A program made the translations under genes and the position numbers. Shown one piece after another: positions 2,498 through 14,748 of a stretch of 44,240 nucleotides of DNA (its first letter is position 1; each line of letters begins with the position of its first letter). The stretch is from Escherichia phage vB_EcoS_SCS92: sequence record ON548432.1. One strand, 5' to 3'. The notes under the pieces are model-generated. The model did not search any database and was not told the origin of the DNA. It saw nothing but the letters and a program-made list of their open reading frames with translations.

Positions 2498-3199
2498 TTA
2501 TTTCCTCAGGGCTTTAAGTTGCCGTTCAAATTCGGCAGGGTTCGATTTATACAGGGCTAAACGCTCTGCTTCACTCATGTCTTTAAACGCTGGTGCGGCC
2601 CCGCCGCCTTTGCTACCGGAAGCCCCGCCGCCGGAAGCTGCATTTGCTTTAATCAAATGCGAAAACGCTTTGTGCTCTCGCAGGTATTTGCGGAACTGTT
2701 CCGGGTCAGTCGTGATTACGTTACCGTCTGCGCCGACAAACTTAGTAACCACATCATCACCTTCGAACTCAGTCTTAACGAACGGCGCAAGGATGTCCAC
2801 TGCTTCCGGGGTAATAAAGTCACCCGCGAAAGAGCCTAGCACCGCTTTACGTTCGCTGCCGAGGATGCGCTCTGCCATTTTGGAGATGCGGCCATCTTTC
2901 TCGGCTAACACCGGGTCATACTGGCTACGAATCGTCTTTTCAAACTCGTCCATCTTACCGGCGGCCTTTAACGCCTCCTGGTGCGCACGCTGCCGTTCTT
3001 CTTCGGCCTCTTTTGCTTTACGGGCGGCTTCTTTCTTCTCCGCCAGCAATGCTTCCTGATTGGCCTTAAGCCCGGCAACTTCTTTCTCAATCAGCGCCTG
3101 AACTTCTTCAGCGGTGAACATTTTAGGAGCGTCACCGCCACCAGCTTTATCTTCTGCTCCAGCTTCTTCCTGGAACGGATAACGTAAAAAACGATTCAT
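2498..3199 (-). CDS. scaffolding protein
   Basis: Charged, helical, coiled-coil-like sequence (EEVQALIEKEVAGLKANQEALLAEKKEAARKAKEAEEERQRAHQEALKAAGK) immediately upstream of the capsid gene. Likely ATG at 3199 (MNRFLRYP); the track extends to 3253. Confidence 0.55.
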   Translation of the reverse strand: MNRFLRYPFQEEAGAEDKAGGGDAPKMFTAEEVQALIEKEVAGLKANQEALLAEKKEAARKAKEAEEERQRAHQEALKAAGKMDEFEKTIRSQYDPVLAEKDGRISKMAERILGSERKAVLGSFAGDFITPEAVDILAPFVKTEFEGDDVVTKFVGADGNVITTDPEQFRKYLREHKAFSHLIKANAASGGGASGSKGGGAAPAFKDMSEAERLALYKSNPAEFERQLKALRK

Positions 3200-3281
3200 A
3201 GTCAGTATGTCCCCTGGACGTTGGAATCCGGGCCACCCGGATTTACATGTCAAGAATAAATTATTCCAACATGCAAGGCAA

Positions 3282-3545
3282 CTATTCCAGAATATTCCTC
3301 ACGTAATCCTGCAACATGAACACTTTCAGTCTCAGTTGCCGTACGCATTCGGCGTTCTGAACGTCGATAGCTAAATCCTCGTCCGCGTCACTACTTGGTG
3401 GCGCCAGCTTGCACGGCGGCTGCATCATCGTCGTATCCGGGGATGGAATTGGCGTTGGCGACGGCGCGGGACTTGAGCTGCACGCGCTCAGGGTCAAAAG
3501 TGCACACGCTGCGACCTGGCGTTTTAATGTATTTAACGACTTCAC
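3282..3545 (-). CDS. o-spanin (Rz1-like outer-membrane lipoprotein)
   Basis: 87 aa. Signal peptide with lipobox-like LTLSAC, proline-rich mature part. Overlaps the 3' part of the i-spanin gene in another frame. Confidence 0.5.
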   Translation of the reverse strand: MKSLNTLKRQVAACALLTLSACSSSPAPSPTPIPSPDTTMMQPPCKLAPPSSDADEDLAIDVQNAECVRQLRLKVFMLQDYVRNILE

Positions 3546-3777
3546 GGGTAATCACCTCTGATTTCGTCTTGCCTTCGTTGTCAGCGGCGGCGGCCTTTGA
3601 TTCGTCCTGCTGCTGCCGTTGTGTTTTCTTCGCTAACTCAGCCTGCGCTTTCTGCTGTTGCTGCGAAACGAGATTCGCCCGGCCTTCGTTCCAGCCGCTG
3701 CGATACTGGTAGATGCCGTGGGCGTAAGCCAGGATGATGAAACATGCTCCTGCTACGACAGTTGCTTTAAGATTCAT
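3391..3777 (-). CDS. i-spanin (Rz-like)
   Basis: 128 aa. N-terminal transmembrane segment (VVAGACFIILAYAHGIY) followed by a Gln/Ala/Lys-rich coiled coil. AAAGGGGAAAC precedes the ATG. Confidence 0.55.
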   Translation of the reverse strand: MNLKATVVAGACFIILAYAHGIYQYRSGWNEGRANLVSQQQQKAQAELAKKTQRQQQDESKAAAADNEGKTKSEVITREVVKYIKTPGRSVCTFDPERVQLKSRAVANANSIPGYDDDAAAVQAGATK

Positions 3778-4028
3778 GTTTCCCCTTTCTCGATAAGTAA
3801 AGCCCCGCCTTAAAGCGGGGCGCTAGTCCTTATCATTTAAACATAGAAACGGCGTAATCTCAGTAAACCCGTTACTTTTTACACAAGCAATAGAGTATGG
3901 CCCTTCCGAACGCGTCAGCGTAACTACACTCAGGACTTACGTCCCGCTCCGTTACCTGCCCGCGCCGCGGTCGCTTGTTCATACTTCACAAGCTCAGGTG
4001 GAGCTTAGCACATTTTTAGTGAAAAGTC

Positions 4029-4044
4029 AACTATTCGAATAGTT
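4029..4044. repeat. perfect 16-bp palindrome AACTATTCGAATAGTT
   Basis: Read directly. Sits in a 375-bp ORF-free region and overlaps a TTGACT hexamer on the minus strand. Confidence 0.6.
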
Positions 4045-4096
4045 TATTCCAACATTTACAATTGAGTGGAATAACTGGAATACGTAAATAAATAGT

Positions 4097-4125
4097 TTGC
4101 ACACACCAATATAATAGGGTACTAT
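4097..4125 (+). promoter_or_regulatory. sigma70-like promoter (TTGCAC-N17-TACTAT class) with embedded AATAG-N4-CTATT palindrome
   Basis: TTGCAC at 4097-4102, 17-bp spacer, TACTAT at 4120-4125, about 28 bp upstream of a gene with an AGGAGGTG Shine-Dalgarno. Near-identical copies at 38905, 15547(-) and 16739(-). Confidence 0.5.
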
Positions 4126-4152
4126 TCATTTAACTTAAACAGGAGGTGAAAA

Positions 4153-4356
4153 ATGTATGCAATTTGCGAAGTAGTTCAAGAGTTCGATGAAGAGTTCGAC
4201 GGTGACTTGTGCCGGGTTAAAAAGGTTCTGCAGGTTTTCCCTGACGCAATGTCTGCTTACAAGGCATTAGATATATTTGAACCTGGAAGATACGGGGATT
4301 ATGACACTGTTCTGAGGGTTGTCCATGAGCAGGATTTAAACACAAGATTCCGTTGA
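4153..4356 (+). CDS. hypothetical acidic 67-aa protein (opposite-strand moron in the head gene block)
   Basis: Strong AGGAGGTG Shine-Dalgarno 7 bp before the ATG, own promoter and a downstream hairpin. No recognisable domain. Confidence 0.55.
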   Translation: MYAICEVVQEFDEEFDGDLCRVKKVLQVFPDAMSAYKALDIFEPGRYGDYDTVLRVVHEQDLNTRFR

Positions 4357-4380
4357 AAAATAAAGCCCCATTTCGGGGCC
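4353..4380. terminator. terminator hairpin between convergent genes (stronger on minus strand)
   Basis: GCCCC-atttc-GGGGC stem; the minus-strand RNA is followed by TTTATTTTTC. Lies between the 4356 stop (+) and the 4386 stop (-). Confidence 0.4.
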
Positions 4381-4385
4381 TCTTA

Positions 4386-4847
4386 TCATTCGGGCTTAAT
4401 AACCTTCGCCGCTTTACTGAAGGCCTCTACTCCATCGGCATCGGTAACTTTAACGAAGTATTCGCCGACCGCATTAACCGTCAGAGACAGAGCCTCTGCA
4501 GGGGCGTTTACCACTTCCTTACCGTCTTTGTACCAGGTCAGAGAATACGGCGCTTTGCCTGCCTTAACCTCGACAGTGATGGTTGCGCTGCCGCCCGCCA
4601 GTTCAGCGTCCTGCGGTTGCGCAGAGAAATACACGTCGCCAGCGTCCGCCAGATACGGAATTTCATAAAGCATACCGGCGGCGGGCAACGCAATACCGGT
4701 TTTATCTGCAAACGGCATATCATCTACCGGTGTACCGAGTACACTTTCGTCCTCAATAAATACCACGTTCTCGCCAGAGCCAGACACGCGGGCGTACTGG
4801 ACTACGCGACGAGACGGTACGTCAGTTACTTTGAAAAAGCCCATCAT
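4386..4847 (-). CDS. Ig-like domain protein (second copy), putative virion accessory protein
   Basis: 153 aa. C-terminal Ig-like motif APYSLTWYKDGKEV...GEYFVKVTDADG. Confidence 0.5.
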   Translation of the reverse strand: MMGFFKVTDVPSRRVVQYARVSGSGENVVFIEDESVLGTPVDDMPFADKTGIALPAAGMLYEIPYLADAGDVYFSAQPQDAELAGGSATITVEVKAGKAPYSLTWYKDGKEVVNAPAEALSLTVNAVGEYFVKVTDADGVEAFSKAAKVIKPE

Positions 4848-5890
4848 TATTCCCCTTTCAGATAATCAGCAACACGTTTATCGAGTTCCGCCATCTGCTT
4901 AAGCGTGAGCGGATTCCCGAAACCATCTACAGATATTACGCGAAACTCTTCCGGCGATATACCGCTGTTACGGAAAATCTTACCTCGCACCGGGCCGAGC
5001 GCCTGGTCCTGAAACCATGCTGGTTGTTGTTTCAGGAACTCGTAATATGTTGTGTCCGCGCTTACCTGAGTGCCGCCGTCAGCGCCCTTAGCCGCCCGTT
5101 TTGCGCCTTTATCGAGGAAGTCGAACTCTGAACTGATTACCGGAGCCGTGCACGACCGACAATTCGGATGGGCTGGGGGTGTCGGCCCTTTACCGATTTC
5201 CCACGTCATTCCGTCTCTGGCCCTGCAAATAGCGCTGGTACGGCTATCCAGCGTAGACACCCATTCATATTTCTCGATGATGTCGTCGTTCTGGCGGTAT
5301 GTCTCGTTGCGGGCTTCGTTGGATACGTGAGACAGCGCGGTGCGTATTACTGTAGCTGCGTTACGTTCTGAGATGTCAGCCAGCCCGCCCGCGCCTACGA
5401 CATTCTTAACAATCTGCCGTGTTGTCTGGCCTTGTACAAAGCCCATCTTAACGCCGGTTACAAGACGTGCTACTTCCGTTTCACCCCAGCCGTCCATCAG
5501 CTTAGTGAAATCAACGGGCTTGTCACTCAACGATAATGGCTGAAACTCGGCAGCAGCCCACACCTGTTCAGCGGTAGGTGTAACAAATTCCGCGTCTACG
5601 TTGGCGGTCAGTGTCTTTACGTTCCACTCAGCCTCGTACGCCGCCAGTTCCTTAAGGTCGTCTGTCAGCTTTGTCTGCCAGTCGCCCGTAATCCCTGTCA
5701 GTGCTTCTTCAAGGTCCCGTAACAGTTTATTCAGCCGCGCAGTGCTTCGCCCGTCGTCGCCGAATAACAGCACCTGCCGTTTGATTTCATCCCGCATCTC
5801 CTGAATGAACGGTGTGAGGTCTTTCACCTCACCGGATGCGGTGCGTTGCAGCCATATCTGATGGCTGATGAGGGATGTAAGTAAGCTCAT
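4847..5890 (-). CDS. head morphogenesis protein (Mu F / SPP1 gp7-like)
   Basis: 347 aa, directly downstream of the portal gene. Phage Mu F-like signature region (STLDSRTSAICRARDG). Confidence 0.7.
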   Translation of the reverse strand: MSLLTSLISHQIWLQRTASGEVKDLTPFIQEMRDEIKRQVLLFGDDGRSTARLNKLLRDLEEALTGITGDWQTKLTDDLKELAAYEAEWNVKTLTANVDAEFVTPTAEQVWAAAEFQPLSLSDKPVDFTKLMDGWGETEVARLVTGVKMGFVQGQTTRQIVKNVVGAGGLADISERNAATVIRTALSHVSNEARNETYRQNDDIIEKYEWVSTLDSRTSAICRARDGMTWEIGKGPTPPAHPNCRSCTAPVISSEFDFLDKGAKRAAKGADGGTQVSADTTYYEFLKQQPAWFQDQALGPVRGKIFRNSGISPEEFRVISVDGFGNPLTLKQMAELDKRVADYLKGE

Positions 5891-5924
5891 AGATCAACCC
5901 TGTGGCGCTAAAGTTAATAGCATA

Positions 5925-5949
5925 CTATAAGAAAGCCCCTTTCGGGGCT
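5925..5949 (-). terminator. hairpin (attenuator-like) between portal and head morphogenesis genes
   Basis: AGCCCC-tttc-GGGGCT stem; the minus-strand RNA continues with TTTCTTAT. Confidence 0.3.
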
Positions 5950-5959
5950 ATAGGTGAAC

Positions 5960-7441
5960 TTACTGCTGAGTGGTGTCCTGTTGCTGCGCCGACTGCGGAA
6001 TCTCTCCCGCTACCTGAGCAACAGAACCCAACGGCAGAGGTGCGTCTTCAATAGCGTTCTGAATGTCCTCATCTGTCCAGTCAGTCACACCTGCCTTGCG
6101 CAACGCAGCATAGTAAGCGGTGGCGGGTAGCAGGCCAGCGTTAATATCCGCCATCCACTGAGCGCGGTCCTGAGCTGTCATAGGTTGCAGGAAGAATTCC
6201 ATATTCAGCTTGAACTCAATCTCAGTATCTTCACTAAGCCCAAGCATACCCGCAACCCAGCGCAACGCATCGGTATACGCCATGCTTACATTACGTGCTA
6301 TTGTTGCCATGACTGACGTGTCGGCGCCGCGTTGCAGGCGGGCCGATTCCGCGGTGATTTGCTGCGTCGGGGTGATAAGCTGCGCGCCAATCTGGATGGC
6401 CTGATTCTCTTTATCCAGCATATTCTGTTTGGCGAGGTTAGTTTCCGCCGCCTGAACCAGAAACGCATTTCCGCCGGAGCCGATGTTGTGGCCTGAACGC
6501 GACCCCATGCGTATGCCGTGTGGGTTGGCTTCTTTCCACTGCTCCATGCTCATGTTCTCGCCGGGGGCAATGAACAGTGTCGGTTGACCTACTATAAAGC
6601 TGGCCTCTTCCACATCGGCCGAATTTCTGAAGTGTCCTATATTTAGCTCAGCTAACGGCAGTAAAGGCGCATCGTCTATAGTGGCGTCGTTGTTGCTTGC
6701 GCCAATGAACGTGAACGGGATTTTACCGCGCAACTGTTCGCCGAGTTCCGGGAAGATTTCGATTACTTCATCCTGTGCACCACCTTCGGCATCGAAGCGG
6801 TAGATGCGCTGGCGGTAGCGACCGTCAATCAGGTCAAGGACGCGGTATTGCTCGCCGAATTTTGTTTCAAACTCAGCGCCTGGTTCCGAGTATTCCCACA
6901 CCTCACGTAACACGACCATCGTCACACGGTTCACTGAGCCGATGCGGGTCAGTCGCCAGTTGATGATGTTCTCAGCAGTGTAGAATGCAATGACCGGGTT
7001 TAGTAACCCCGCGTTCTGTTCGGCTGCCGTTGCCGCGGCTGTCTCCGGGGCGTCCACCAGCAACCCGCCACGACCCACCGAATCAATCTCCATTAGCGTA
7101 TCCTGTGCGTGCTGCCACAGCCCGACACCAGAACCGTCCGCGTTACGTAACAGGTACTCCAGTTCAGGCGGTATAATCTGCTCGGGGTCTTTGCGCATCA
7201 CTGACCCGACCATCCCCGCCAGCGTTCTCTTGGTGAAGTTGTAACAGATAGCGCCGTTCTCGTATTCTTCCTGGCGCTGTGCCGCGTAGGTCGGGTCCGG
7301 CTCATTCTTCCCAACGTTGCGCAGATAGCGGATAAGGTCGCCTTCCAGCGCGTGGCGCACCTTCTGCCATTTATCGAAGTGGTGCAGCCATTCCCGGTGT
7401 TTTGTCTTAACACCCTGATTCTGACCGTTCATAGTTAACAT
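5960..7441 (-). CDS. portal protein
   Basis: 493 aa, immediately downstream of the terminase large subunit. Size, acidic C-terminal tail and position are typical of a portal. Confidence 0.75.
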   Translation of the reverse strand: MLTMNGQNQGVKTKHREWLHHFDKWQKVRHALEGDLIRYLRNVGKNEPDPTYAAQRQEEYENGAICYNFTKRTLAGMVGSVMRKDPEQIIPPELEYLLRNADGSGVGLWQHAQDTLMEIDSVGRGGLLVDAPETAAATAAEQNAGLLNPVIAFYTAENIINWRLTRIGSVNRVTMVVLREVWEYSEPGAEFETKFGEQYRVLDLIDGRYRQRIYRFDAEGGAQDEVIEIFPELGEQLRGKIPFTFIGASNNDATIDDAPLLPLAELNIGHFRNSADVEEASFIVGQPTLFIAPGENMSMEQWKEANPHGIRMGSRSGHNIGSGGNAFLVQAAETNLAKQNMLDKENQAIQIGAQLITPTQQITAESARLQRGADTSVMATIARNVSMAYTDALRWVAGMLGLSEDTEIEFKLNMEFFLQPMTAQDRAQWMADINAGLLPATAYYAALRKAGVTDWTDEDIQNAIEDAPLPLGSVAQVAGEIPQSAQQQDTTQQ

Positions 7442-7453
7442 TGAATAATCCTC

Positions 7454-8725
7454 TTAAAGTGCGAAAGTCACCGGGACATTAATAACTGGTTTGCGAATCG
7501 GCATTTCATACGCGATAGGATATGTGGTCCCGTCGTTCTGGTGGTCCACACCACCCGATTTATCCGGTTCGCCGTTCTTGTCGTAAGCCTGTTGCTCAAG
7601 GCATCGCGCCGTAACCGGGCATGCCTGCTCATTAATCATGACCATACCAGATTCAAGCGCCTTGTTCATTGCTGATACGCGGTCTTTAACCGGCGGGTTT
7701 GTTGATTTGGCGCGTACTTCGAAACCGGCCTGCTGTAACTGAGCGATGTCTGAGGTACTGGCGTTGTTGCTTTTACGGTTTTTGCCGCTGGCGTCCGGGT
7801 ACATAACGATATAGTGGCCCTTACTTTTCCATCGCTCAGTTATGGCCCGCACTACGTCAGGCGTATCGAACATATCAACCAACTCGGCAACAGCGTGCCA
7901 GACCTTACCGCGTTGCACGTAAACCGTGCTCGCCATGTGACCTACGTTAAAGTCCTGCCCAATATACAGAGTCTCGCCGGGATTGATTGTTTCGCGACTG
8001 CTGTTTTTCCTGCGGTCGTAAGCATAGTATACCGTTCCGGACGTGAGGTTTACGAACTTGCCGTCGATGTAGGCGTCAATCAACTGACCTGGGTATGTGT
8101 CGCGTAACGACTGCACATAATCTTCTGGCAGGAACGGGTTAGACAGGGTGGACGCCTGAATCATCTCGTAGCCTGGATTCTTTTTGACTACCCAGCGGTC
8201 ATGTACGAAACGGAATCCTTCCGGGGTAGTGAACACGGAAACGGTATTAGCAGGTTTCGGTGTAATAGGTTTATATGTCCGCGGCAACTGGCGGTTACGG
8301 GCGATGACTTTGTTCCACGCGTGCTCGGCGTGCTCCATGTTAAGGGTGTCCAACTCGTCGATTTTCGCACGAAACGATTCGTAGCCAACGATTCTTGCTG
8401 GATTATCAAGTGTACGCAGAACAAAATCCCCAAATTGTCCGGAAGACGTATAGATTATGTTGTCAGACTTGTTGTATTTGTACCGGATACCCCAGTCGGT
8501 GAGCTTTTCTTCCATACGCGGTGCAAGGATGAGGCGCACCAGGTCATAGGTCGGCTCATACATGGCGATGATAGAATCGCTACCACCTTCCATGCTGTCG
8601 AGTAGTGCAGAGTTGCACATAACTTCGGATTTACCCGTACCGAAGCCAGCTACGAATGCCGGAAACTTGCAATGCATACCGAGAAACGCGCCTTGCGGCT
8701 CCGTTGCCGTGATATTAACGTTCAC
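7454..8725 (-). CDS. terminase large subunit
   Basis: 423 aa. Walker A-like FVAGFGTGKS near the N-terminus and a C-terminal nuclease-like region; sits between the small subunit and portal genes. Confidence 0.85.
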   Translation of the reverse strand: MNVNITATEPQGAFLGMHCKFPAFVAGFGTGKSEVMCNSALLDSMEGGSDSIIAMYEPTYDLVRLILAPRMEEKLTDWGIRYKYNKSDNIIYTSSGQFGDFVLRTLDNPARIVGYESFRAKIDELDTLNMEHAEHAWNKVIARNRQLPRTYKPITPKPANTVSVFTTPEGFRFVHDRWVVKKNPGYEMIQASTLSNPFLPEDYVQSLRDTYPGQLIDAYIDGKFVNLTSGTVYYAYDRRKNSSRETINPGETLYIGQDFNVGHMASTVYVQRGKVWHAVAELVDMFDTPDVVRAITERWKSKGHYIVMYPDASGKNRKSNNASTSDIAQLQQAGFEVRAKSTNPPVKDRVSAMNKALESGMVMINEQACPVTARCLEQQAYDKNGEPDKSGGVDHQNDGTTYPIAYEMPIRKPVINVPVTFAL

Positions 8726-11539: not shown

Positions 11540-12043
11540 TCAACCTTTCACCGCGCGCCCGATAGCCTCTGCCTCTTGCCACGGTTTACCGTCGAACAGC
11601 GCCAGACGACCGGCAGTACGGCGGCGCAGACCAAGTAACGGTCTGCCGTTCTGGTTGATGAACAGTGTCAGCTTAGCCCGCAGCGTCTCGATATCACCAG
11701 AACGCAGTGCCTTACCTGTACCAGTAGCAGCCGCAATCACGCCGGCGCCAGCGTTATATACCAGGTCACACACCGCATCGAACTGAGCCTGTGTTAATGA
11801 ATGGTGTGCTGCTGCGTCAACCGCAGCTACGGCCTTAGCCATGTCGCGATTCAGTAACAGGAGTCCTTGCCCCGGGGTGATGGTCTGCCCAGCCTTAACG
11901 TCTGGCCCGTAGTGACCGTAGCCGATAGTCAGGTACTTCTCGTTCGGCGTAGCACGATACGCAGTACCTCGGAACCCCTCAAACGCAGCGGTGAAATGCA
12001 ACCCATTATCTGAAATGTTTCGAGACACGCTTATGTCCCCCAT
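11540..12043 (-). CDS. endolysin, GH24 lysozyme-like
   Basis: 167 aa. FEGFRGTAYRATPNEKYLTIGYGH matches the catalytic region of T4/lambda-type lysozymes. Sits downstream of the holin genes. Confidence 0.7.
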   Translation of the reverse strand: MGDISVSRNISDNGLHFTAAFEGFRGTAYRATPNEKYLTIGYGHYGPDVKAGQTITPGQGLLLLNRDMAKAVAAVDAAAHHSLTQAQFDAVCDLVYNAGAGVIAAATGTGKALRSGDIETLRAKLTLFINQNGRPLLGLRRRTAGRLALFDGKPWQEAEAIGRAVKG

Positions 12044-12278
12044 ACGACAGCCACGCCTGGCGAATCTGGCGAAGCGCGACTAATGTGATTAATGTCTCAG
12101 GCAGCGTTGGCGACATGCTGCCCTGTAACAGGTGGATACATCCGGCGGCGCAGACAATAGCAGTCAGAATATAAAGCACACGGCCAAATAATCCGTCATC
12201 CACGCTGGGGTGATATACATTAAACAGCGATGTGCCTCCGATTGCCAGCATACCGCCGAACCAGAATAATTCATTCAT
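12006..12278 (-). CDS. holin-like / antiholin membrane protein
   Basis: 90 aa with two hydrophobic segments, between the holin and endolysin genes. Confidence 0.45.
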   Translation of the reverse strand: MNELFWFGGMLAIGGTSLFNVYHPSVDDGLFGRVLYILTAIVCAAGCIHLLQGSMSPTLPETLITLVALRQIRQAWLSYGGHKRVSKHFR

Positions 12279-12579
12279 CTGTGCCTCCTCGACGTGCGAT
12301 GTATTCTCCGGCGACGATACCGGAGAGACGGGAATAGATGGGCATCCAGAGAATTGCGATGATGAATCCGAGGCCAGCTATCTCGCGCTCTCCGGTAATA
12401 CCGAACCATTGAGCCGCGAGAGGTGCGCCGAATACGGCGCAAGTGAAGCCAGTTGCAATAAAGCAGAAGCCGTCGATGGGGCCAGAAATAACGGACTTAT
12501 GTTGTCGTAGTCCGATTACCCCTCCGGCTAGCGCGGCAGCGAGAAGCCAGCCTGTCACTGTTTCAGTAAATTTATCCAA
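12271..12579 (-). CDS. holin
   Basis: 102 aa with three predicted transmembrane segments and a charged C-terminus, immediately upstream of the lysis genes. Confidence 0.55.
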   Translation of the reverse strand: MDKFTETVTGWLLAAALAGGVIGLRQHKSVISGPIDGFCFIATGFTCAVFGAPLAAQWFGITGEREIAGLGFIIAILWMPIYSRLSGIVAGEYIARRGGTDE

Positions 12580-12638
12580 GATGAATCCTCCAGGTGCGTA
12601 TTAAGTATGCAGTAACTGGAGGATAGCACGGTTAGGAA

Positions 12639-13076
12639 TTATCTTAATAACGGTTTGGTAATAATCTTGCCGCCGGTGTTGGTGTCGAACTTAGATGCAA
12701 CTGCTACGCCACCATGTGCTGAATACCCACACTCCATAGCCGCCAGTGCATATGACGAGCCAGACCCTACGGCGGCAAAGCCGTCTGCAATTGGAATAAC
12801 AGAACTTAGAGTGCAATCCCAAGATTTGTAGAACTCCACCTTATACAACGTTTCAATGTCTTTAACCCATACCAAAGCAGAGAAATCAAAATCATAATGC
12901 TTAGGCACTAAAATACTATCGTCCTTCACTAAAAGGATACCAGCTTCAGCATTACCCGCTACACCGATAACAGCAAACTCGTTCTCATATATCTTGGTAT
13001 CTGTGTTGTAGATGTGGTCCCCGGCTACTCGGGTGTCACAGGCCATTGTCTTTCCGTCAAACGCGATAGTAGTCAT
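12639..13076 (-). CDS. HslV-like (proteasome-type Ntn-hydrolase) peptidase
   Basis: 145 aa. Starts MTTIA (the Thr nucleophile position of HslV), and has the GSGSSYALAA region aligning with HslV GSGGPYAQAA and a C-terminal DTNTGG region. Confidence 0.6.
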   Translation of the reverse strand: MTTIAFDGKTMACDTRVAGDHIYNTDTKIYENEFAVIGVAGNAEAGILLVKDDSILVPKHYDFDFSALVWVKDIETLYKVEFYKSWDCTLSSVIPIADGFAAVGSGSSYALAAMECGYSAHGGVAVASKFDTNTGGKIITKPLLR

Positions 13077-13390
13077 TTATGTCTCCAGATGTATTGTCGT
13101 CTCTGTGGTTTCGTCGGAATATCATCGTACCCCAGCGATTTCCAGTAATTAAATAGCCGGTTCGCGATAGCTGCGCGTTCCTTTGTTTTAAACTCACCGA
13201 GATTCACGGCCTTTCCGTTCTGGAATCCACAGGCGTGGATAGCTTTACGCCGTTCTTGTATCTCTGGGTACAGCACGTTACGGCGACGCTTGTGTATACG
13301 TGTCTTCGCTCTCGGTGACAGCGGCGCAAGGCCGCTTCGTTTCAGGATGTCAGTTGCAAGGCTCATTGCGATACTTCTCCAGAATCTCAC
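13073..13390 (-). CDS. hypothetical basic protein
   Basis: Track ORF of 105 aa; the real start may be the internal M (MSLATDIL, near 13366). Lys/Arg-rich. Confidence 0.35.
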   Translation of the reverse strand: MRFWRSIAMSLATDILKRSGLAPLSPRAKTRIHKRRRNVLYPEIQERRKAIHACGFQNGKAVNLGEFKTKERAAIANRLFNYWKSLGYDDIPTKPQRRQYIWRHK

Positions 13391-13601
13391 CTACTCTATC
13401 GTATGCATATTCGTCCGGTATTACGCCGTAACCCAGGTCGTTGTCCAGCTTAACTAACATATCGAGTATATCGTTGAGTTCGGCTTCGAGTTTCGCGTAG
13501 TCTTCGTAACTTACATAACGCCCTTCATGAGAGTCCGGAACAGGCGTTATATCTACCACGCCACTCGCGCAGTCTTCTGTTAAATCGTAGCGTATAACCA
13601 T
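13350..13601 (-). CDS. paralogue C of a triplicated small-protein family
   Basis: Starts MVIRYDL with a GGAGG Shine-Dalgarno and a TGATG overlap with paralogue B. The longer track ORF (to 13646) is an upstream extension inside the 94-bp repeat. Confidence 0.45.
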   Translation of the reverse strand: MVIRYDLTEDCASGVVDITPVPDSHEGRYVSYEDYAKLEAELNDILDMLVKLDNDLGYGVIPDEYAYDRVGEILEKYRNEPCN

Positions 13602-13690
13602 CACTCCACCCCCTCCACATGTGTAACTGACCCGCAGTTCGCGCACTCGACGTAATCAGGGTACTGGTCTTTGTATTTCTGTAGCTCGGC
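13597..13690. repeat. 94-bp direct repeat, copy 1 (about 91% identical to 13866-13959)
   Basis: Read directly. Spans the junction of paralogues C and B. Confidence 0.7.
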
Positions 13691-13870
13691 GTTTACTTCT
13701 GCCAGTCTCGACACAAGCCCTTCTATTTCCTTGTCGGCGTCGGCTAGACGTTCCTGGTAATAGTCGTCCAGTTCCTTATAGCTGTCGTACTCTACATAAT
13801 CGCCGTATGCGTACTCAGCCATCTCAGGCTCTGGCAGGCCCCACGCTTTTACCTCATATCTCTGTACCAT
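13601..13870 (-). CDS. paralogue B of a triplicated small-protein family
   Basis: Starts MVQRYEV with a TAATG overlap with paralogue A. C-terminus AELQKYKDQYPDYVECANCGSVTHVEGVE is shared with paralogue A. Confidence 0.45.
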   Translation of the reverse strand: MVQRYEVKAWGLPEPEMAEYAYGDYVEYDSYKELDDYYQERLADADKEIEGLVSRLAEVNAELQKYKDQYPDYVECANCGSVTHVEGVE

Positions 13871-13959
13871 TACTCCACCCCTCCCACATGTGTAACTGAC
13901 CCACAGTTCGCGCACTCGACGTAATCCGGGAACTGGTCCTTGTATTTCTGTAACTCGGC
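13866..13959. repeat. 94-bp direct repeat, copy 2
   Basis: Read directly. Spans the junction of paralogues B and A. Confidence 0.7.
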
Positions 13960-14073
13960 TTCAACTTCCAACAGCTTTAGGTCAAGATTCTGGTAGTCCT
14001 CAAACTTAACCCACTTCCCGTGGCGGTCAATGAAATGGTTGTCGGACCCATACTTAGAATATCTCTGTACCAT
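13870..14073 (-). CDS. paralogue A of a triplicated small-protein family
   Basis: Starts MVQRYSKYG at ATG 14073 with an AGGAG Shine-Dalgarno just after the upstream stop. C-terminus ELQKYKDQFPDYVECANCGSVTHVGGVE. Confidence 0.45.
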   Translation of the reverse strand: MVQRYSKYGSDNHFIDRHGKWVKFEDYQNLDLKLLEVEAELQKYKDQFPDYVECANCGSVTHVGGVE

Positions 14074-14074
14074 G

Positions 14075-14278
14075 TTATTTCTCCTGTTTTCCAAGTCGCT
14101 TAGGTGAGCAGATAGCGCGTACCTCTGAATCGTTGGGCTTGTCACCCTGAAACAGAAAGTGCGCGTTCTCGGCGGCGCGTGCCGCTGACTGGCACGCCTC
14201 CATCGAGTAAAACGTTTCTGATGCCGCCAGGTGCATCTGGCCTGCGGACAGTACCCAGATAAATAAGATGCTGGTCAT
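14075..14278 (-). CDS. small protein with N-terminal signal peptide
   Basis: 67 aa. N-terminus MTSILFIWVLSAGQMHLAAS is hydrophobic with an AxA-like cleavage site; two Cys in the mature part. Confidence 0.4.
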   Translation of the reverse strand: MTSILFIWVLSAGQMHLAASETFYSMEACQSAARAAENAHFLFQGDKPNDSEVRAICSPKRLGKQEK

Positions 14279-14748
14279 TTGATTTTCCCGTGGTTGTCGT
14301 GAAACCCATATTTGTTCTCAGCGTCGGCCCTCGCTGCTCTTGCGGCAGAAAGGTCGTCGAAATATCCTAAATGTACATTTTTACCGTTAACCTTTATGGT
14401 CCCTTTCCATTTACCCGCACGCTGGAACCAATACACTCCAGTAACACCTGACCGGTTGTTGGCGGCTAATTTTGTGTTTCTATGGTTTTCGGATGCTGTT
14501 ACTTTCCTAAGATTGCACAAACGATTGTCACTACGGTCGTGATTTATGTGGTCTATTTGCTCCCCTGGGTGAAGTAAATCGTCGGGGTTAAACATGTCCC
14601 ATATTATTCGATGTGCGCGGTACTGCCTCTTTTCGACCTTCAACACAACATAGCCATCCCTATTCTTACACGTTACTTTTGCTGAGGTCTTCTTCCATGA
14701 AAGAATGCCGGTAGTATGGTCATAATCGAATAGTGTGTGCCATTTCAT
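14275..14748 (-). CDS. HNH homing endonuclease with AP2-type DNA-binding domain
   Basis: HNH motif IDHINHDRSDNRLCNLRKVTASENHRN and an AP2-like C-terminus (SGVTGVYWFQRAGKWKGTIKVNGKNVHLGYFDD...KYGFHDNHG). Confidence 0.8.
   Translation of the reverse strand: MKWHTLFDYDHTTGILSWKKTSAKVTCKNRDGYVVLKVEKRQYRAHRIIWDMFNPDDLLHPGEQIDHINHDRSDNRLCNLRKVTASENHRNTKLAANNRSGVTGVYWFQRAGKWKGTIKVNGKNVHLGYFDDLSAARAARADAENKYGFHDNHGKIK

Follow-up and report, generated by a model that had tools for sequence, protein, structure and literature searches.

The window analysed in this study, a complete phage genome of 44,240 nucleotides, contains on its minus strand an open reading frame (ORF) at positions 12639-13076 whose 145-aa product (MTTIAFDG...AVGSGSSYALAAM...DTNTGG...) was read in the first-pass annotation as an HslV-like peptidase encoded without an HslU partner. 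This raises the question of which kind of proteasome homologue the phage encodes and whether such a protein would function together with the HslU of its host, titrate it as a decoy or work without it.

The ORF is a genuine gene. Its ATG is the earliest usable start 3' of an in-frame stop codon, which makes a propeptide impossible; the sequence GGAG is found 7 nt 5' of this ATG, and the start overlaps the stop codon of the upstream gene gp26 as ATGA. The counterpart in Escherichia phage NTEC3 (Kagunavirus, Guernseyvirinae) is gp25, the name used for the protein from here on. It is labelled 'hypothetical protein' in the NTEC3 record (NC_073318.1/OK539620.1), while the labels given to the homologue in sister phages are 'peptidase HslV family', 'ATP-dependent protease' and 'protease'. 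When comparing the genome with the NTEC3 record the two were found to be of equal length with 1,461 substitutions and no indels, the differences being patchy (0 to 242 per 2 kb) and mostly transitions. Two amino acids of gp25 differ between the two (P142 and R145) and both are as in the remnant of the gene in phage Bas72 (see below), so that the variation looks natural or recombinant.

Searches with gp25 against PHROG gave a match to PHROG 1040, 'peptidase HslV family', over residues 1-141 (E = 2.9e-34). Other searches with the single sequence were marginal: 13.3 bits and E = 0.065 for the Pfam family Proteasome (PF00227), below its gathering threshold of 22.4, although a precomputed PF00227 match exists for some relatives; 13 bits for the NCBIfam HslV equivalog TIGR03692, where the cut-off is 157.75; 12 bits for NF003964 (HslV), where it is 137; and E ~0.65 for phmmer against PDB. 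A family profile was therefore needed. An exhaustive phmmer search over 1.84 billion representatives identified 1,268 clusters at 50% identity (E <= 1e-3), nearly all of them 135-160 aa long and with an alignment that starts at residue 1, and a homologue was found in 674 of 50,697 phage records. Run against PDB, the family profile placed BPH, the beta-proteobacterial proteasome homologue, first (1.2e-10), followed by HslV (3.3e-08 and weaker) and proteasome beta5 (~4e-07). An hhalign comparison of the profile with E. coli HslV gave a probability of 96%, E = 2.5e-09 and an identity of 17%; the numbering of the HslV sequence used reproduces the published F54, F57, A79, K80 and Q114. The likeness of gp25 to the proteasome/HslV superfamily is thereby confirmed as well beyond chance.

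To follow the active site the positions of the proteasome residues were located in gp25 from the family alignments and the hhalign register (all coordinates on the minus strand). A Met-Thr start is shared by 97–98% of the family representatives, and Thr2 (codon 13071-13073), the putative Thr1 nucleophile after loss of Met1, is invariant in a further family alignment. Asp14 (13035-13037), conserved to 99%, and Lys28 (12993-12995), conserved to 100%, pair in hhalign with D17 and K33 of HslV and thus correspond to Asp17 and Lys33 of the proteasome and HslV. In the same register Gly38 (12963-12965; Gly in 75% and Ala in 20% of the family) takes the place of the oxyanion-hole Gly47 of the proteasome (Gly45 of HslV), and Gly41 (12954-12956), Gly in 99% of the family, that of proteasome Gly50. 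The loop Gly104-Ser105-Gly106 (12759-12767), containing the Ser129 equivalent, aligns with the GSG of HslV and is conserved to 100% for the first Gly, 91% for Ser (Thr in 7%) and 100% for the second Gly. Finally, Asp131-x-x-Thr134-Gly135-Gly136 (12669-12686), with D in 98%, T/S in 90%, G in 95% and G in 70%, presumably represents Asp166/Ser169/Gly170/Gly171 of the proteasome, as counted on the T. acidophilum beta subunit. In the family alignments M1, T2, T3, A5, A12, D14, K28, G41, A102, G104, S105, G106, A110, A113, M114, G117, A123, A127, D131 and G135 are invariant or conserved to at least 90%. Taken together, the family conservation and the hhalign register indicate that a complete and strongly conserved proteasome-type active site is kept in gp25, which is probably an active enzyme.

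The structure of gp25 was predicted as a single chain (monomer) with AlphaFold2 from a 120-sequence alignment, giving a model with a mean pLDDT of 90.7 and a pTM of 0.86. The model consists of beta-sandwich strands with helices only at residues 43-51 (H1), 107-115 (H3) and 120-130 (H4), of which H3 and H4 are normal and highly conserved in the family. According to DSSP, H1 comprises 9 residues (12924-12950, minus strand) and is followed by a loop of residues 52-64 (12885-12923, minus strand) in place of the rest of the HslV H1 and H2, so that H2 is absent from the model, and the last strand (residues 138-142) closes the chain, with no S12/H5. Foldseek against PDB ranked ClpQ/HslV, BPH and 20S beta subunits almost equally (E from 1e-7 to 1e-5, query-normalised TM of ~0.65-0.75 for the top matches), and many further phage proteasome-like models are held in BFVD.

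PHROG 1040, the family profile, hhalign and Foldseek thus agree with the first-pass annotation that the phage encodes a homologue of the proteasome-type Ntn peptidases. The Thr, Lys and Ser positions, which it proposed to check, are conserved, as is Asp, and the protein is indeed shorter than HslV, by ~30 residues. The alignment with HslV, which had been seen by eye across the whole length, holds for residues 1-50 and 90-140 but is broken in between, where ~30 HslV residues (the second half of H1 and all of H2) are absent from gp25. The name HslV itself could not be kept, given the score far under the equivalog cut-off, the missing H2 and a family profile closer to BPH.

A better match was found in the work of Fuchs, Alva and Lupas (Bioinformatics 2021, PMC8665760), who by computer analysis described 22 new proteasome homologues, PPH being one of them (representative WP_042125023.1). 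PPH is described there as a compact subunit of ~140 residues without S12/H5, found in Caudovirales phages and prophages and belonging to group I, which radiates from BPH, beside HslV; H2 is missing only in PPH and RPC. The protein gp25 fits this description in its length of 145 aa, in its start with Thr directly after Met1 and no propeptide, in its triad and oxyanion-hole glycine (T2, D14, K28 and G38, together with S105, D131 and T134), in the absence of H2 and of a C-terminal S12/H5 from the AlphaFold2 model, in being encoded by a tailed phage, and in a profile that among PDB entries lies nearest to BPH and HslV, as expected for group I. From this match to the published description we assign gp25 to PPH with high confidence. 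The first-pass annotation is hence partly supported, right at the level of the superfamily and wrong in the detail, the protein being a PPH rather than an HslV. It is not new, as the family has already been named and sister phages have already been annotated; no experimental study of any PPH member, purification or knock-out included, was found in the searchable literature.

There is no difference of substance between gp25 and PPH, the Guernseyvirinae proteins forming a divergent subgroup with 27-41% identity to typical members. This branch lacks the Trp at position 52 that 74-90% of the family keep and has two short insertions relative to typical PPHs, and with these differences its members may also behave differently from them. 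Long PPH-like proteins with an acidic C-terminal extension were seen in Vibrio phage 1.187.O (267 aa) and in Phapecoctavirus ETEC-TG (230 aa), the extension fitting the description of 'RPC' in PMC8665760. A bacterial homologue of 148 aa was also encountered on a 2.9-Mb contig (GCA_963795415.1, locus coordinates 8001-8447), surrounded by ABC-transporter, pirin and cytochrome genes and with no phage genes within 8 kb, in agreement with the non-prophage PPH copies reported in some bacteria (PMC8665760).

When comparing gp25 with the known systems, HslV shares with it the MTTI N-terminus (in E. coli HslV), Thr1, Asp17, Lys33, the GSG loop and the alpha-beta-beta-alpha Ntn fold. The two differ in that the identity is 17-22%, gp25 is ~30 residues shorter and far under the NCBIfam HslV cut-offs, its truncated H1 and missing H2 leave both the HslU tail pocket and the docking face incomplete, and its genome holds no linked hslU, a gene normally placed in the same operon as hslV. 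BPH (PDB 5OVS), the best PDB match of the PPH profile (E = 1.2e-10), is likewise a group I proteasome homologue with no known ATPase partner; however, it is larger (~200 aa), has all four helices as well as a long acidic pore loop, and assembles into double heptameric rings, whereas in PPH both H2 and the pore-loop region are missing.

In accordance with the first-pass annotation, no AAA+ unfoldase was found in the complete 44,240-nt genome by Walker-A scan, Pfam or tblastn. The Walker-A motif scan of the whole genome returned only the large terminase, an SNF2 helicase and three chance sites, Pfam assigned AAA_25 to the primase-helicase and SNF2/DEAD to the helicase, and tblastn of the genome with the E. 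coli HslU sequence gave only a weak coiled-coil match. A phage with HslV and without HslU has been described before, in the case of a jumbo phage (PMC7823757). PhoH was considered as a partner ATPase and rejected, since the order PhoH-x-PPH occurs only with the long, C-terminally extended forms and there is no PhoH in NTEC3. The order itself, a PhoH-like ATPase gene followed by a small ORF and PPH, was observed in 1.187.O (locus 3926-5804) and in ETEC-TG (locus 2701-4687), which belong to two large myophage groups.

With an E. coli host that has HslU and a phage that has no ATPase of that kind, the protein might replace or join the host HslV and use host HslU, thereby redirecting ATP-dependent proteolysis to substrates chosen by the phage. 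This use of the host enzyme had been put forward in the first-pass annotation and is in line with the MTTI N-terminus and catalytic residues shared with HslV and with HslV/ClpQ being among the top structural matches. The C-terminal tail of HslU is received by HslV in a pocket made up of F54 and F57 of H1, A79 and K80 of H2, and Q114 (PMC6429459). In the model of gp25 the H2 part of this pocket is missing and the H1 part is truncated, although the residues that take the places of F54 and F57, as mapped from hhalign, are still hydrophobic. The loss of H2, which carries part of the pocket, together with the halving of H1 would thus take away A79, K80 and a large part of the apical surface that forms the tail pocket, and makes a dependence of gp25 on host HslU unlikely. 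The same is indicated by the position of the family profile, nearer to BPH with no known unfoldase, by the HslV equivalog score of 13 against 157.75 bits, by a family that reaches far beyond the enterobacterial phages (Fuchs et al., PMC8665760) and by the loci inspected, in none of which hslU was near PPH. Judged from the monomer model and the pocket residues in the literature, gp25 is unlikely to use HslU, and we consider a redirection of the host protease an improbable role for it.

The first-pass annotation also offered a second role, that of a decoy in which catalysis is irrelevant and host HslU (or HslV) is titrated so that host proteolysis is blocked. Phages do inhibit host proteases, as T4 does with PinA directed against Lon, and a short HslV-like protein without a partner would suit such a function. 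A decoy would not need its catalytic positions, yet across more than 1,000 clusters all of them show no or almost no variation, and the face that would dock to HslU is the very part that has been lost. Moreover, dN/dS of the PPH gene was 0.129 between NTEC3 and Bas73 and 0.138 between SP-101 and LDT325, two independent pairs, and where present the gene is under purifying selection. A value of ~0.13 points to selection on the whole protein and argues, together with the conserved catalytic residues, against the decoy, which we regard as extremely unlikely.

Some relatives are annotated as 'nucleophile aminohydrolase' or 'aminohydrolase', and the Ntn-hydrolase superfamily includes many amidases that are not proteases, so we also considered an Ntn amidohydrolase whose substrate would be a non-protein amide such as a small molecule, a cell-wall peptide or a signalling compound. 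All detectable similarity in sequence and fold is to the proteasome branch, however, where every characterised member acts on polypeptides, and the support residues specific to proteasomes (the equivalents of Ser129, Asp166 and Ser169) are kept, which makes an activity of this kind very unlikely.

The reading that we favour as the probable one is that gp25 is a stand-alone Thr1 peptidase, independent of HslU. In this mechanism Met1 would be removed by the methionine aminopeptidase of the host, as we infer from the known specificity of that enzyme, which permits Thr in the second position, and from E. coli HslV, which matures in like manner from the same MTTI. Thr2 would thereby become Thr1, whose free amino group and side-chain hydroxyl would attack the peptide bond with the assistance of Lys28 and Asp14 (as Lys33 and Asp17), while the backbone of Gly38 would provide the oxyanion hole (as Gly47) and Ser105, Asp131 and Thr134 would support the site (as Ser129, Asp166 and Ser169). 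The beta-sandwich core is predicted to be kept together with H3 and H4, the helices that in proteasomes make up the ring-to-ring face, while the face where HslV receives HslU would be lost with H2 and half of H1; with that face lost the protein most likely has no need of HslU or of another AAA+ partner. The stand-alone peptidase may self-associate, its oligomeric state being, like the removal of Met1, something that we infer, and it could act on peptides, on proteins in an unfolded state or on some specific target within the infected cell. Proteasome beta subunits show no activity when isolated from the assembled ring (PMC8665760); a PPH unable to form rings might depend on some other activator.

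Between ~16,700 and the terminase every gene is carried on the minus strand, and PPH stands at the end of a block of small genes of unknown function, followed by holin-holin-endolysin. This lysis cassette (11540-12579, minus strand), identified by PHROG 2359, PHROG 2508 and the endolysin PHROGs and by the annotation of relatives, consists of a holin at 12271-12579 with the start TTG at 12579, a holin at 12006-12278 recognised by its PHROG match and an endolysin at 11540-12043 matching the endolysin PHROGs, all on the minus strand, and it lies directly downstream of PPH as had been noticed from the start. On the other side, gp26 (13073-13366, minus strand; phrog_9632/4947) codes for 97 aa of unknown function and its stop overlaps the PPH start. 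It was rejected as an obligate partner since gp26 persists without PPH in Bas72. Pfam gave no match for gp26; by eye its stretch KAVNLGEFKTKERAAIANRLFNYW resembles the AP2-type DNA-binding motif of the neighbouring HNH endonuclease (14275-14748). Further upstream, at 13350-14145 on the minus strand, three tandem overlapping paralogous ORFs (98, 104 and 91 aa; phrog_29624) were observed, with the common ending ...QKYKDQ(Y/F)PDYVECANCGSVTHV(E/G)GVE and, in two of the three, the shared start MREL(R/W)VSYTCG. They are underlain by a 103-nt direct repeat (89% identity, spacing 269), and the middle copy (13601-13915) is unannotated in the NTEC3 record.

In the spacer of 59 nt that separates the stop of PPH from the start of the holin, a hairpin was identified at 12585-12624 (minus strand) with the arms ATCCTCCAG and CTGGAGGAT. 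It contains a perfect 9-bp inverted repeat in which the Shine-Dalgarno sequence of the holin, GGAGG, is paired with an anti-SD, it folds as RNA with -18.8 kcal/mol (z = -2.74), and it is kept in the Kagunaviruses, including Bas72, which lacks PPH. The hairpin may control translation or transcription of the holin. In Jerseyviruses, where the order from PPH to holin is the same, the spacer contains a terminator-like hairpin with a T-run, and this location between the two genes suggests that PPH closes the upstream transcription unit, which would be in line with the earlier guess that it is an early gene. A promoter and terminator scan around the PPH gene gave results no better than shuffled sequence. 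PADLOC gave no match for PPH and thus no link to known defence systems.

Proximity to lysis genes is also found in other phages, in a sample of about ten hand-picked lineages. In Xylella phage Paz (Autographiviridae; locus 3061-4405) PPH comes directly after the o-spanin, its start overlapping the o-spanin stop, in Nonagvirus FritzHoffmann (locus 3501-5768) it is located two small ORFs upstream of the spanins, and in Pseudomonas phage AH02 (locus 3941-7470) it lies ~2.6 kb upstream of the holin. PPH is away from the lysis genes in Jedunavirus, Phapecoctavirus, phiCbK and a Rhizobium phage. The adjacency is suggestive, and may reflect only a hot spot for accessory genes.

The adjacency has a bearing on yet another reading, in which PPH is no chambered protease but a monomeric or dimeric enzyme for highly specific processing, or a protein ligase of the connectase kind, that would cleave or ligate a single phage or host protein and would possibly be tied to the late or lysis stage. 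Connectase, the archaeal proteasome-like protein ligase, is like PPH in having given up parts of the H1/H2 helix pair, PPH being without H2 and half of H1, and it sets a precedent for a proteasome homologue that without this pair is monomeric and a specific ligase. Several of the new homologues may not be compatible with ring assembly (Fuchs et al., PMC8665760), and in three lineages that are unrelated to one another (Guernseyvirinae, Xylella phage Paz and Nonagvirus) PPH adjoins a lysis cassette. In connectase, however, both helices are gone and a two-helix lid is inserted between S3 and S4, while the AlphaFold2 model of PPH keeps a short H1 and shows no equivalent of this helical lid. The helices of the ring-ring contact, H3 and H4, are kept and highly conserved, the adjacency does not extend to the Jedunavirus, Phapecoctavirus, phiCbK and Rhizobium phages and may be a matter of the accessory-gene hot spot, and the gene is dispensable. 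A connectase-like or processing role of this kind appears unlikely.

The dispensability is seen in Bas72, a sister phage without PPH in which the gp26 homologue is directly followed by the holin, the region being 93.5% identical. Here a clean deletion of ~420 bp spans PPH (Bas72 locus 2969-3045 compared with 12579-13076), leaving the 3'-terminal 16 nt of the PPH ORF (ACCGTTATTAAGATAA) and the whole spacer, while both Bas73 and NTEC3 carry the gene. Among the E. coli-phage records that match the 4-kb region by DNA (102 named Escherichia and 11 Kagunavirus) the protein is encoded in about one third (30 and 3). From the clean deletion and this limited occurrence it follows that the PPH gene is accessory, outside the lysis machinery and morphogenesis. 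A role as prohead protease was rejected, the gene being located outside the structural module and deleted in the viable Bas72.

For the biology of these phages, the adjacency in Guernseyvirinae, Paz and Nonagvirus together with the loss of the H1/H2 face would allow PPH to be a small enzyme that needs no ATPase, has a single specific target and plays a part bound up with the end of infection, and not a chambered general protease, although we hold this to be unlikely. If it were true, lysis timing or envelope disruption might, for instance, be controlled by a host or phage protein that PPH processes or removes, a connectase-like ligase being the other possibility. NTEC3 or Bas73 on the one hand and Bas72 on the other form a natural, isogenic-like pair and thereby a ready-made natural experiment on what PPH does.
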